45,378 nucleotides of DNA, taken from positions 102,803 through 148,180 of the IMG/VR virus record IMGVR_UViG_2974693523_000001; one strand, 5' to 3'. Source of the stretch: a virus. Its lineage: Duplodnaviria; Heunggongvirae; Uroviricota; Caudoviricetes; Ackermannviridae. A program made the position numbers and the translations under genes. Of this stretch, positions 4,522-18,468 are shown piece after piece (position 1 is the stretch's first letter; each line of letters starts with the position of its first letter). Under the pieces are notes generated by a model that was not told where the DNA came from, searched no databases, and was given only the letters and a program-made list of their open reading frames with translations.

Positions 4522-4824
4522 TTATTCTGCTTTTAGTACGGATCTCAATAACTCACTAACATAGATCTCACCATTAGTCTTGAACTCAATTCTGATTTTA
4601 TCCGAATCAGTGTCCGTACTTACAATGAAATAATCATAAAATGATGGTGTCTGTAATCTAGAATCTCTTTTCCAGATACAGAATTGACATTCACTATAAA
4701 ACTTGTCATTAAGTTTGGCTACAATTTGTGCCATAGTATCCAAACAAACAGGCGCTGACATAAATTCACTAACAATTTCATTAGAAAGATACTTCTTAAT
4801 TCTTTCATTTAGTTCATTAACCAT
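4522..4824 (-). CDS. Hypothetical protein
   Basis: 100-aa ORF with a GGAG SD, abutting the upstream gene. Confidence 0.7.
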   Translation of the reverse strand: MVNELNERIKKYLSNEIVSEFMSAPVCLDTMAQIVAKLNDKFYSECQFCIWKRDSRLQTPSFYDYFIVSTDTDSDKIRIEFKTNGEIYVSELLRSVLKAE

Positions 4825-4825
4825 G

Positions 4826-5482
4826 TTAATTCTCCGTTAACCAAATAGCTAAATTACAAACAGAACTTTCATCTTCCAATAGTTCATACCACATTGAACC
4901 CATATAACCCTGCATACCTAATAGCATCACCTGTTTCGGATCTTCATTAGATAAATCAAAGGCAGTATGTGAGGCGGGAATTACAATCTTGTTGCATACT
5001 GGTTTCACACTTTTAAATACTTCATATGAGTCATCAAAAATTGCGTCAAACCTAACATAGTTTTTATCCGCAGTATCAATGAAACCAGAAAACACCCCTT
5101 CAAAATGTTTTTCAAGGTATCTCTTTTTACTTTGTATGTGCTCAGGCATACATTTAGAAACAACAATATGCTCTACCGGTCGTCCTGTTAAATTAGTTAT
5201 GTAATCACCTAATCTAATAATCAACGAGCGCTGTTCGTTGTCAAAGGGTTTCATATCATCATATAGGTTTGGTTGTTTCCAAAAATCAATTGAACTACAA
5301 CCTATAAGATTATCAAAATAGGGGACAAGATCATCCCCTAAACCAACAACCTCTTCAAACTGTACCCAATCAACTGGCTTTAAGCGTTTATTAACCCAAT
5401 CAATCCATTCAGTAAGCCCATCATTTAACGTATAGTCAAAATCCCATGCAATAATAAAAGGTTTTTTCATGATATTTACCAT
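4826..5482 (-). CDS. HAD-family 5'(3')-deoxyribonucleotidase
   Basis: HAD motif I WDFDYTL, FWKQPNLYDDMKP, K..YL motif and terminal IFDDS. Confidence 0.8.
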   Translation of the reverse strand: MVNIMKKPFIIAWDFDYTLNDGLTEWIDWVNKRLKPVDWVQFEEVVGLGDDLVPYFDNLIGCSSIDFWKQPNLYDDMKPFDNEQRSLIIRLGDYITNLTGRPVEHIVVSKCMPEHIQSKKRYLEKHFEGVFSGFIDTADKNYVRFDAIFDDSYEVFKSVKPVCNKIVIPASHTAFDLSNEDPKQVMLLGMQGYMGSMWYELLEDESSVCNLAIWLTEN

Positions 5483-11369: not shown

Positions 11370-12008
11370 TTATTTTATATCCATGTGACGGATCACAAGA
11401 TAATCAATAGGATGCTGCATGTAATGAGTGGATGGGATTTTTGAGAAATCGTTCATTGTTTGTTTAATGTTCAATTCCTTAGCCCAGCGAAGGAAGCCAC
11501 TACGATAAACACATAAACAGGCGGGGAAATGTTCTATTGAAATTTCATCCCCGTCTTTTGGTGGTATGTAATAAAGATTGAAAACTGTAGCGTTGTTAGC
11601 TTTTGAACCATTACCCAAAACAATACCAACCCTATTTTGAAGAATGGTATTATTATGAATTTTTGGTGTAAAGTATGGTCTAAAAGCTTCTGATATTTGA
11701 TCACTAGGTTTATCAAACATTATGTTGAAAGATAAGTGATTATTATTTTGAATATCCCATTTGAGAAGTTCAATAGCGTGTTCTGTTACTGGGATGATAG
11801 TGATCTTCTGATTTGAACCACCCTTTAGAAATGTTGATGCAGCTTTGGTCAACATATCCTCAGCAAGATCATAACGTTTCATTTTTAGAGCATGTTTGAA
11901 AAGTGTGGAATCAATAACATTTTCCAAAAGAGGTTCAACAATACGTAAATATGAACCTTTAATTGAATTAGGTTTTATTGACAAATAATTTTGATGTTCA
12001 TTTGGCAT
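11370..12008 (-). CDS. Hypothetical protein
   Basis: 212-aa ORF with no recognisable motif. Confidence 0.7.
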   Translation of the reverse strand: MPNEHQNYLSIKPNSIKGSYLRIVEPLLENVIDSTLFKHALKMKRYDLAEDMLTKAASTFLKGGSNQKITIIPVTEHAIELLKWDIQNNNHLSFNIMFDKPSDQISEAFRPYFTPKIHNNTILQNRVGIVLGNGSKANNATVFNLYYIPPKDGDEISIEHFPACLCVYRSGFLRWAKELNIKQTMNDFSKIPSTHYMQHPIDYLVIRHMDIK

Positions 12009-12018
12009 GGTGATTACT

Positions 12019-12192
12019 CAGGTTTTTGAAAGTTGACAAAATATTAAACTAATAATTAATTAATGAATAATTTATTAGTTATCTTATTAGTTATCTTATT
12101 ACAAAAAACCTGTGATGCTTCGTCGTCAGTTAAGTTCGTTGACACTCCTTAACTTCCTCCAAAGCATCATACAAAGTCGTTCTTCGCACGAC
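12019..12192. other. Structured intergenic element: two hairpins plus an AT-rich repeat block (candidate origin or terminator)
   Basis: Stems tgatgctt/aagcatca, gttaag/cttaac and gtcgt/acgac; tandem TAATAAGATAAC repeats on the minus strand. Confidence 0.6.
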
Positions 12193-12201
12193 AAGTAAAA
12201 T

Positions 12202-13839
12202 CTATTCATTACCGTTAAATCTTTTTTCTGCTAATTCTTGCTTAAACTTTTTTCTTTTATCACTTTCCTCAAGAAGCAAAGCAAATTGTGATACAGGTAA
12301 AAATTCCCAATGTCGACAATCAACAACCTTTGTCACTACATTATGTCCTTTAGATTTATAATATCCATAACGTTTAGCACCATGCTCAATAAATGTAGCC
12401 TTACTCCCAGGAGATAATCTAAAGTCATCGACAATGTCATAAATATTAGCAATTTTCTTACTACTATGAGTTCGCAACATCCTACCAATGGCTTGTAATA
12501 CAGCAATTATGGATTTAATTGGATGACATAACACAAGATTATGAAGTTTGCGAATACTAACACCAGTCCCAAGAGTACCGAAGGAAGCACATAAAACAAC
12601 TTTTTCACCATTTTCAACAGCCTTTTTCATTTGATCTCTAATGTCGTTAGGTACATCACCATCTATACGATATACGTTACTATGCCCCATCTCTTTTAAC
12701 ATGTCGTAGACGGCTTTAGAATGCTTTTTGCGCACAAATAAGAGTAAGGTGTTGCCCTCTAGTTTATTTGCAAACTTAGCAATAAAACTATTGCGCTCTT
12801 TGGATTCACTTATTGCTCTTATTTTACCTTCATAGTCCAGTTTATCCATATTCAAACAGACTGGTCTACGATATTTAAAATTTAATACTCTAATCAGAGT
12901 GTCTGCTGATTGCCCGCGCTCTTTTAACATTTGTGTGGTAGCTATACGGATTATCTTACCAAAGTGTGCCAACACTTGTAGAGTGTGCAGTTCTGTATCA
13001 CGCATTGAACCCGTTACACCAATTCTTTTATATGCATTGATACAGTTATTCAAAATATAAGAAATTTTTTCAGCTGAAGCGCCATGAACTTCATCACAGA
13101 ATACATGAGTAAATTTACAAAAGAATTCAGGGTCTTCATTTTGAATTGATTGCCAAGTGGAAACAGTTATAGGCGCAGATCTATATTTATCCTTAACACC
13201 ACCTTTAATGGTGTGGATACACTGATTTGAAAATTTATCATCTTTGTATGAGAATTTACCAAAATCATCATACATTTGATCTACCAGCATCACACTGGGT
13301 ACTATAATCAATATTTTAGCTTTATATGAGGTAACATCACAGAAAAACCTTGATAAAAGATATAAAATAAGGGTTTTACCTGCATTTGTATCAGCAAGCA
13401 ATACACAGGAATCATTTGTAATACCCTCATAAAACCCATGCATTTGATAATCATAAGGTGTTAGGTCAAAATACCCGTTTTCATTATGACCAGTAAGTTT
13501 TAAAGATTCAACATATTCTTCAAGTTCTTCAAGTTCTACTTTTTCTTGAAAAAATATACCTTTATCAATTTTGATGTCATAATTAACGGATTTACAGAAT
13601 TCAAATAATGTTCTTACTAAACCACGAGGTAAGACTTGTTTTTTATTATCAAATAGTCTTACTACCCCATCCCATTTTGAATATCTGTTTGGTTTATGTG
13701 TGGGGTCTTTGAATTTAAAAAACTCATAAATTTCCCGAAGCATAATCTCATTAGTAACCTCAATAGAAACCTTTGAGGCACTTAACGAGCGAACGTAAAT
13801 TGTTTCTTTTTCCATGCTAGAGAATACCCAATAAAACAT
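12202..13839 (-). CDS. uvsW: UvsW SF2 DNA helicase
   Basis: TNAGKT, DEVH, TGS, GTLGTGVSI and QAIGRMLR motifs. Confidence 0.93.
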   Translation of the reverse strand: MFYWVFSSMEKETIYVRSLSASKVSIEVTNEIMLREIYEFFKFKDPTHKPNRYSKWDGVVRLFDNKKQVLPRGLVRTLFEFCKSVNYDIKIDKGIFFQEKVELEELEEYVESLKLTGHNENGYFDLTPYDYQMHGFYEGITNDSCVLLADTNAGKTLILYLLSRFFCDVTSYKAKILIIVPSVMLVDQMYDDFGKFSYKDDKFSNQCIHTIKGGVKDKYRSAPITVSTWQSIQNEDPEFFCKFTHVFCDEVHGASAEKISYILNNCINAYKRIGVTGSMRDTELHTLQVLAHFGKIIRIATTQMLKERGQSADTLIRVLNFKYRRPVCLNMDKLDYEGKIRAISESKERNSFIAKFANKLEGNTLLLFVRKKHSKAVYDMLKEMGHSNVYRIDGDVPNDIRDQMKKAVENGEKVVLCASFGTLGTGVSIRKLHNLVLCHPIKSIIAVLQAIGRMLRTHSSKKIANIYDIVDDFRLSPGSKATFIEHGAKRYGYYKSKGHNVVTKVVDCRHWEFLPVSQFALLLEESDKRKKFKQELAEKRFNGNE

Positions 13840-15527: not shown

Positions 15528-15553
15528 TATTTAGTCACCATATTAGCTAAATA
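15528..15553. promoter_or_regulatory. Back-to-back late promoters CTAAATA (minus 15528-15534 for gp3; plus 15547-15553 for the lipoprotein)
   Basis: Same motif and ~27-30 nt spacing to the ATG as at nine other late genes. Confidence 0.65.
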
Positions 15554-18294: not shown

Positions 18295-18309
18295 AAATTT
18301 CAAAGAGGC

Positions 18310-18352
18310 TTGTAAAAGTCTCTTTTTCATTTTAATATGGCGTTAACTAAGG
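18310..18352 (+). promoter_or_regulatory. Sigma70-type promoter overlapping a terminator-like hairpin
   Basis: TTGTAA-17 bp-TAATAT, followed by TTAACTAAGG. Confidence 0.55.
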
Positions 18353-18360
18353 AGTTCGCT

Positions 18361-18468
18361 ATGTTTTGGATGATCACTAAATTTTTATTCAAGCTTGCAA
18401 TTGGTTATGGAATATTCTGTGTAATCTGTTTGTTTGTGTTCTTGGGGTTGTTGCATGTCTCAAGCTAA
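18361..18468 (+). CDS. 35-aa single-TM membrane peptide (not in the ORF track)
   Basis: AAGGAG SD; MFWMITKFLFKLAIGYGIFCVICLFVFLGLLHVSS. Confidence 0.6.
   Translation: MFWMITKFLFKLAIGYGIFCVICLFVFLGLLHVSS

Follow-up and report, generated by a model that had tools for sequence, protein, structure and literature searches.

What are two hairpins, one of them full of tandem G.A mismatches, doing directly behind a phage helicase gene? They sit on the minus strand in a 193-nt intergenic gap between a UvsW-like helicase gene and a 212-aa ORF, both also on the minus strand. We analysed the final 45 kb of this 148,180-bp virus record; that whole stretch of 45,378 nts is the window, and positions given below are window positions unless we say otherwise. 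The helicase gene (12202..13839, minus strand) has the Pfam domains UvsW_N, ResIII and Helicase_C and the PHROG annotation DNA helicase, and its closest named relatives are in Vibrio phages and in Ralstonia phage RSP15. It closes a tightly packed minus-strand block of tail-tube-like, UvsY, PD-(D/E)XK exonuclease and UvsW genes, in which ORFs abut or overlap, and which is preceded by a CTAAATA late-promoter motif at 15534. The element lies 9 nts past the uvsW stop, where this gap-free operon ends. The first gene downstream is the 212-aa ORF (11370..12008, minus strand), a member of phrog_3788, a family of unknown function, and then come a 75-aa ORF, an HU-like gene, a sigma factor and DNA polymerase. 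As for CTAAATA, it occurs 30-36 nts ahead of the ATG in at least 12 genes of the whole genome, and its sites in the window are at 15534 (minus), 15547 (plus), 16928 (minus), 28983 (minus) and 44940 (minus), with others elsewhere in the genome. From this placement, it is evidently the late promoter motif of this phage; the T4 late promoter motif is TATAAATA.

Both hairpins had been described in a sequence-only reading of this locus, and both are present in the minus strand. The large one (12113..12169, minus strand) is identical in a second copy of the element that we present below (copy B). In the RNAfold structure it consists of a bottom stem of 10 pairs (UGAUGCUUUG/CGAAGCAUCA, with a U.G among them), a 2x2 GA/GA loop, one G-C pair, another 2x2 GA/GA loop, a 7-pair stem (AGUUAAG/CUUAACU), a GA facing GAA, a G-C and a U-A pair, and a GUCA loop. 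The three G.A tandems proposed before appear in this fold as three 5'-GA-3'/5'-GA-3' motifs. Under random mismatches, the chance of three tandem G.A in such an orientation is about 7e-7, which is a crude composition-based estimate. A weak UUUG/CAGG extension lengthens the hairpin to 12175-12109, and a run of six U (12103..12108, minus strand, in the context GG-TTTTTT-G) follows directly 3' of it. The extended hairpin reaches this U6 run in the layout of an intrinsic terminator.

Using RNA parameters, the element strand folds at -26.8 kcal/mol (z -5.4, with 0 of 200 shuffles equally good), and using DNA parameters at -11.1 kcal/mol (z -3.7). The complement folds at -16.1 kcal/mol (z -4.2) with RNA parameters, ~10 kcal/mol weaker than the element strand, and at -8.7 kcal/mol (z -2.9) with DNA parameters. 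The earlier claim that the structure works on one strand only survives as an asymmetry in energy, but not in its strict form, because the complement folds too. Rfam has no match to the element at the gathering score, and the matches at E-values up to 10 are at chance level. Nor does the hairpin have the shape of a kink-turn, which has a bulge of three nucleotides and, 3' of it on the bulged strand, tandem G.A/A.G, its loops being symmetric (2x2) and its sole bulges single nucleotides 3' of GA. The true terminators had been described as perfect stems with UUCG-type loops. The other terminators of this genome do have perfect GC-rich stems; their loops vary.

The small hairpin, GTCGT-G-C(GAA)G-A-ACGAC (12176..12192, minus strand), has only 5 pairs and is of no statistical weight. 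Its stem is lost in copy B (GTCGTTTGAAAACCTAC) and in all relatives, where the GAA alone is invariant. It had been taken for a structured element; sequence and alignment indicate instead that these nucleotides are the 17-bp spacer of a promoter, with a hairpin that is not conserved. The -35-like sequence is CTTGTCG (12189..12195, minus strand), and 17 bp past it there is a -10-like TATGAT (12166..12171, minus strand), which lies within the 5' arm of the large hairpin. A promoter scan lists TTGTCG-17-TATGAT. In an alignment of seven copies from two loci and three lineages, CTTG is invariant (7/7) and has an A-tract upstream in most copies. The GAA in mid-spacer and the start of TAT(G/T)AT are also invariant, and the other spacer positions diverge. 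The spacing from -35 to -10 is 17 bp (18 in one copy), and the -10-like hexamer reads TATTAT in the L012/L019/L020 group of contigs. The conservation pattern is that of a predicted sigma70-type promoter, and its hexamers match the other early promoters of the phage, CTTG(C/T)(A/C)(A/T)-N17-TAnnAT, which are found in cassettes resembling the PeSLs (promoter-early stem-loops) of T4-type phages. In all lineages for which the hairpin is known (this genome, the contig L019 and Vibrio phage VPALA), the -10-like hexamer is in the 5' arm of the bottom stem. The sigma70 promoter model does not explain the invariant GAA (12183-12185, minus strand, aligned in the six other copies).

After the U6 run comes an AT block (12040..12102, minus strand, ~90% A+T) with two 12-nt direct repeats, TAATAAGATAAC, at 12101-12090 and 12089-12078. 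The module then reads A-tract, CTTG (-35), 17-bp spacer, TATGAT (-10), G.A hairpin, U6 and AT block, the latter 60-90 bp in length. L018, L019 and VPALA do not keep the 12-nt repeats. We considered the 12-mer as a general promoter motif and rejected it, since it occurs in the two copies only. Similarly, a 9-bp inverted repeat (CAGGTTTTT/AAAAACCTG) flanking the AT block is not kept in copy B or in L018. A GUG-started frame runs from the hairpin loop (12145-12056, minus strand), with 29 aa here and 38 aa in copy B, and the 12-nt repeats, translated in it, give NKIT twice; in L019 there is an unrelated 14-aa frame, which opens at a canonical GAGGAG-7 nt-AUG start. As a small peptide this candidate fails, given that neither length nor sequence is conserved and that the frame is missing in VPALA, and judging from the sequence it is probably not a gene.

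Is any of this conserved? The repeated unit (copy A, 12055..12198, minus strand) has exactly one further copy in the genome, copy B, at genome positions 47873-48018. Both copies are on the same genome strand, 67 kb apart, and they are 92% identical over 146 nts. Identity is 98% over the 112 nts that comprise the large hairpin, the U-run and ~55 nts at the start of the AT block. Copy A comes directly after uvsW, and copy B directly before a gp5-like baseplate hub/lysozyme gene, between that gene and a small ORF with a bidirectional terminator, and antisense to both. Contigs of four sequencing runs cover the copy A context (X5) and the copy B context (X8) in close relatives, and show no variant letters within the hairpin, so that they yield no covariation.

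The relatives were found through protein look-ups and the phage collection only; exact-pattern scans of viral_contigs (4 patterns), metagenome_contigs (2 patterns) and genome_contigs (1 pattern) gave 0 matches. The Logan contig L012 (UvsW 76% identical) stops within the 5' arm of the hairpin, and the Logan contig L018 (212-aa ORF 87% identical at the protein level) starts within the 3' arm; L018 shares with this genome an identical 37-nt stretch of the AT block. The ENA contig L019 (gp5-like 56%) has a complete module ahead of its gp5-like gene, antisense to it and with its own sequence, and L020 (gp5-like 55%) has a 5' arm as in L019. The contigs L017 (UvsW 56%) and L023 (gp5-like 41%), both from one sample, end in one and the same 30-mer, which runs from the -35 to the start of the -10. 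The cultured Vibrio phage VPALA (UvsW 71%, gp5-like 51%) has exactly two copies, 94% identical over 187 nts, on the same strand, at the same loci and in the same orientations as in this genome. The two loci thus carry matching copies in four lineages (this genome; L012/L019/L020; L017/L023; VPALA), and the copies are alike within a genome and diverged between lineages. This occupancy of both loci across relatives implies that the two-locus arrangement is old. The Logan contigs L012, L013, L014, L017, L018, L020 and L023 all break in or beside the module, as they should if those genomes, like this one, have two copies of the repeat. In more distant relatives (L015, L016 and L017), ordinary GC-rich terminators follow uvsW.

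The structure is retained as the sequence changes. In L019, the bottom stem has 8 pairs, with one compensatory change (from the G-C of this genome to U-A), below a G.A-rich interior, and a U5 run abuts the stem directly. In VPALA, a bottom stem of 10 pairs is built from unrelated sequence (GGUUAUUUAU/GUAAAUGACC, including a -10-like TATTTAT). The VPALA hairpin has two GA/GA loops, both 2x2, and is capped by C(GAA)G, and its RNA z is -5.6 to -7.2. The U-run and terminator layout are present in L018 and L019, but not in VPALA. The sequence-only reading had named covariation across related phages as its test, and lack of conservation or covariation as its refutation. With the second copy, the homologues in three further lineages, the rebuilt bottom stem and the recurring tandem G.A loops, that refutation fails. 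These comparisons support the element as a conserved, strand-specific structure with a putative function. A neutral duplication homogenised by gene conversion, with a hairpin that has no function of its own, is a very improbable explanation. Short repeats are indeed ready sites of recombination in T4-like phages, and recombination between PeSLs has been documented (PMC2839356). Against it, the same two loci are filled in four lineages at 51-76% protein identity, the structure outlives its sequence, and the identical 37-nt stretch in L018 lies next to a gene that is 87% identical at the protein level.

What, then, could the function be? The reading we find most plausible, although we hold it tentatively, is that the two hairpins are the upstream half of a ~150-bp stop-restart cassette, a distinct two-copy relative of the PeSLs. 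In its favour are a significant, strand-asymmetric hairpin that reaches the U-run, its place at an operon end where more distant relatives have plain terminators, the promoter-type conservation, the conservation of the hairpin and the precedent of the PeSLs. Transcripts arriving from upstream, here the late uvsY-exonuclease-uvsW mRNA, would hold the whole hairpin and the U-run and end there, the hairpin acting as an intrinsic terminator or as a 3' stabiliser. RNA polymerase at the embedded promoter would start ~7 nts past the -10, near 12159, at the foot of the G.A helix. These locally started transcripts would be without the bottom stem and would therefore escape termination. They would bear the G.A hairpin as a 5' stem-loop (the G.A part left in them folds at -11.6 kcal/mol) and continue as an A/U-rich leader into the 212-aa ORF and the HU, sigma and DNA-polymerase genes. 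The stabilising effect of the tandem G.A pairs on the RNA helix would be limited to one strand, and a protein may recognise the surface that they offer.

Several things sit badly with this proposal. PeSLs are numerous and occupy variable regions, unlike this module with its two copies at conserved core loci. At the uvsW locus the module is at the 3' end of a same-strand operon, and at the gp5 locus it is antisense to its neighbours. A clear weak point is that the gp5 locus has no upstream gene to terminate and no obvious downstream gene; in this genome, a transcript from copy B would reach the bidirectional terminator after ~130 nts. It is also clear that a stop-restart cassette leaves unexplained the near-identity within genomes, and the divergence between lineages, of ~110-190 nts that include the AT block. 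In addition, VPALA is without a U-run and L017 has a separate canonical terminator ahead of the module, so termination is not universal.

A transcript that is read rather than stopped is another way to account for the hairpin. On two early transcripts it could act in cis as a leader RNA element that a protein or RNA polymerase recognises, for instance as a nut/put-like antitermination signal or as an RNase III processing site. The two copies would be identical because they share one trans-acting partner. Near-identical copies directly downstream of two early-type promoters would fit such a leader, as would the non-canonical tandem G.A loops conserved in three lineages, the helices of 20-27 stacked positions (about two turns), the terminator ~130 nts downstream at locus B, and the strong RNA z-scores in this genome and in VPALA. 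However, Rfam offers no known family for it, a candidate partner protein was not found, and transcripts from the embedded promoter cannot fold the bottom stem. We regard a leader element as improbable.

The sequence-only reading had gone in a different direction, to a DNA-type structure acting as single strand. The hairpins would be a primase/helicase loading signal or, on a strand that has been unwound, a DNA hairpin of particular stability. DNA is known to form d(GCGAAGC)-type mini-hairpins as well as sheared G.A pairs in tandem, and the module family is like these in having 5'-GA/GA-3' tandems and C(GAA)G loops. In favour of such a signal, the structure is specific to one strand, the hairpin of this genome is significant with DNA parameters too (z -3.7), and C(GAA)G triloops recur, in the apical loop of VPALA and in three hairpins beside AT blocks in Vibrio phage 207E48.1. 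The likeness stops at the small C(GAA)G hairpin of the window, which is not conserved, and at the large hairpins, which RNA parameters explain better: in VPALA z is -5.6 with RNA and -1.5 with DNA parameters, and in L019 -1.6 and -1.2, so that neither relative has a significant DNA hairpin. C(GAA)G hairpins are not enriched genome-wide, and nothing points specifically to a primase/helicase loading site. We therefore give single-stranded DNA very little credence. From that interpretation we keep the conserved, putatively functional structure and a possible origin context, and we set aside the single-strand specifics, given a hairpin that abuts U6 after an operon as an intrinsic terminator would.

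An origin context is possible because the promoter precedes a very AT-rich block and because the two positions resemble those of T4 oriE and oriF. The corresponding alternative is that the twin modules are transcription-primed (R-loop type) origins, like T4 oriF and oriG or the T7 primary origin. The promoter would fire into an AT-rich unwinding element, and the RNA would prime leading-strand synthesis. The part of the hairpin would be to give form to the primer RNA or to the displaced strand, and to protect the promoter against transcription that arrives from outside. The repeated unit does run exactly from promoter to AT block. By nearest-neighbour duplex energy, the two module AT blocks are the least stable 50-bp windows (rank 1 and 2) of the 148-kb genome, and they also rank 1 and 2 in VPALA and in 207E48.1, that is, in 3/3 phages tested.

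Vibrio phage 207E48.1 (MW824375.1, UvsW 45% identical) has three analogous units, with sequence unrelated to the module. One that follows the uvsW region and one next to a baseplate wedge gene each combine a strong promoter with a C(GAA)G hairpin and an AT block; the remaining unit, directly ahead of the gp5-like gene, has the AT block and the hairpin, and only a weak promoter candidate. The three C(GAA)G hairpins (78631-78649, 110239-110257 and 140187-140205) have stems of 7-8 pairs and each comes after a block very rich in A+T; one has compensatory changes in the stem, and the other two are identical. Positions beside uvsW and just upstream of gp5-like are kept down to 45% UvsW identity.

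The third least stable window of this genome is an AT block at 7.9 kb. It belongs to a 460-nt divergent gap (genome 7694-8153, locus L053 ~4695-5154) between the baseplate-wedge block and the sliding-clamp gene. This gap contains two hairpins with the loops CGCTTCGCTCC and TCGCTCCGCTCC, one of them on a perfect, AT-rich 21-bp stem. Similar loops (TCGCTTCGCTC, TCACTTCGTTC) cap AT-rich stems just past the module in L019 and VPALA, and there is one after the uvsW of L015. These hairpins may be a conserved protein-binding hairpin.

Several further observations agree with origins. In the T4 record, oriF is at uvsY, ~1 kb from uvsW, oriE lies within gene 5 and its primer RNA is complementary to that gene's transcript, and the oriG primer is antisense to late gene 34. 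T4 oriF and oriG require only a promoter and a ~100 bp AT-rich DUE, and oriE uses an early promoter (Kreuzer and Brister 2010, PMC3016281). The promoter at locus B has no gene to serve, all module copies are on one genome strand, and the copies evolve in concert. A promoter pointing into the element, as in oriF and oriG, is present at the level of sequence. Antisense control of the late gp5 leader was rejected: this genome and L019 have CTAAATA within the AT block, on the strand of gp5, but its placement is not conserved, the late promoter of L023 being outside the module.

The control on T4 goes the other way. The mapped oriE, oriF and oriG rank only ~200-400 in duplex instability (z 1.1-2.1), so that a T4-type origin cannot be diagnosed from extreme AT-richness. 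A comparison of RNA:DNA hybrid with duplex energies gives no consistent preference for an orientation, and GC skew tracks the coding strand only. The 12-nt repeats do not persist in L018, L019 and VPALA, and the T4 oriE 'iterons' are within a 24-nt tandem repeat of the gene 5 coding sequence, which probably reflects a repetitive motif of the protein. Because of the failed T4 control and the null results for hybrid energetics and GC skew, we keep transcription-primed origins as the main rival, possible though rather unlikely. In its full form, which we consider no less doubtful, this phage and related Ackermannviridae-type vibriophages would mark their origins by two or three near-identical modules of promoter, G.A or GAA hairpin and AT block, at the positions of T4 oriE (gene 5) and oriF (uvsY/uvsW). 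T4-like lineages that are very distant from one another would then have kept their origins at the same positions, and the signal for initiation would include the G.A hairpin.

Each reading would have its consequences. A stop-restart cassette would be a second, structurally distinct class of promoter/terminator cassettes in T4-like phages, fixed at two core loci and identical within a genome, where incoming transcripts stop and local ones pass. Origins would give this phage family its first origin candidates that are open to testing, and would suggest an ancient placement of origins near gene 5 and uvsW/uvsY. In either case, the conserved tandem G.A loops are a compact system for asking what recognises such non-canonical helices.

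How does the module compare with systems already known? Like T4 oriF and oriG, it has ~100-150 bp, with a promoter and a strongly AT-rich block within ~60 nts. One module is in the uvsW/uvsY neighbourhood, and the other shares with oriG and oriE an orientation antisense to a late structural gene. It differs in that T4 uses MotA-dependent middle promoters, that T4 origins share little sequence whereas the module copies are near-identical, and that the T4 DUEs are not extreme in duplex stability. The likeness to oriE is in an early-type promoter antisense to the gene-5 homologue, near a switch of the transcription strand (at 46.84 kb in this genome), and in the two 12-nt direct repeats, since oriE also has 12-nt repeats. 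Unlike oriE, which is inside the gene, the module is upstream of it, its 12-nt repeats are not conserved in relatives, and it has no conserved small ORFs of the repEA/repEB kind, the mini-ORF in the loop not being conserved.

With intrinsic terminators, the module shares a stem-loop that abuts six U at the end of an operon. The stem itself is unusual for a terminator, being A/U- and G.A-rich over 27 positions with weak pairs beside the U-run; in VPALA the U-run is missing, and at the gp5 locus no gene lies upstream.

The PeSLs are defined as a sigma70-like promoter plus a terminator stem-loop (Arbiol et al. 2010, PMC2839356; Comeau et al. 2014, PMC4122927). This genome has about eight standard PeSL-like cassettes, one in the window at 18295-18433 and others at genome positions 19044, 29736, 34931, 71652, 71987, 73564 and 86046. 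These cassettes have a GC-rich terminator hairpin with the -35 (CTTGCA/CTTGTA) in the loop, a U-run and a TAnnAT -10, and they often share a leader ending in AAGGAAAGCCAAA. The module resembles a PeSL in its sigma70-like promoter and its stem-loop with a U-run, in one short unit where the predicted CTTG-N17-TATGAT overlaps the hairpin, and in being repeated in the genome with homogenised copies. It departs from them in number and place: PeSLs are numerous, lie in variable, hyperplastic regions and flank orphan genes, whereas there are exactly two modules here and two in VPALA, at conserved core loci. It departs also in architecture, with a promoter that precedes the hairpin and a -10 in the stem rather than a -35 in the loop, with a hairpin that is long and G.A-mismatched where the standard ones are short and GC-rich, and with an AT block of 60-90 bp as part of the unit. 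On this comparison, the element is best filed as a putative new variant of the T4-like composite promoter/terminator cassettes, with a real chance of being an origin module.
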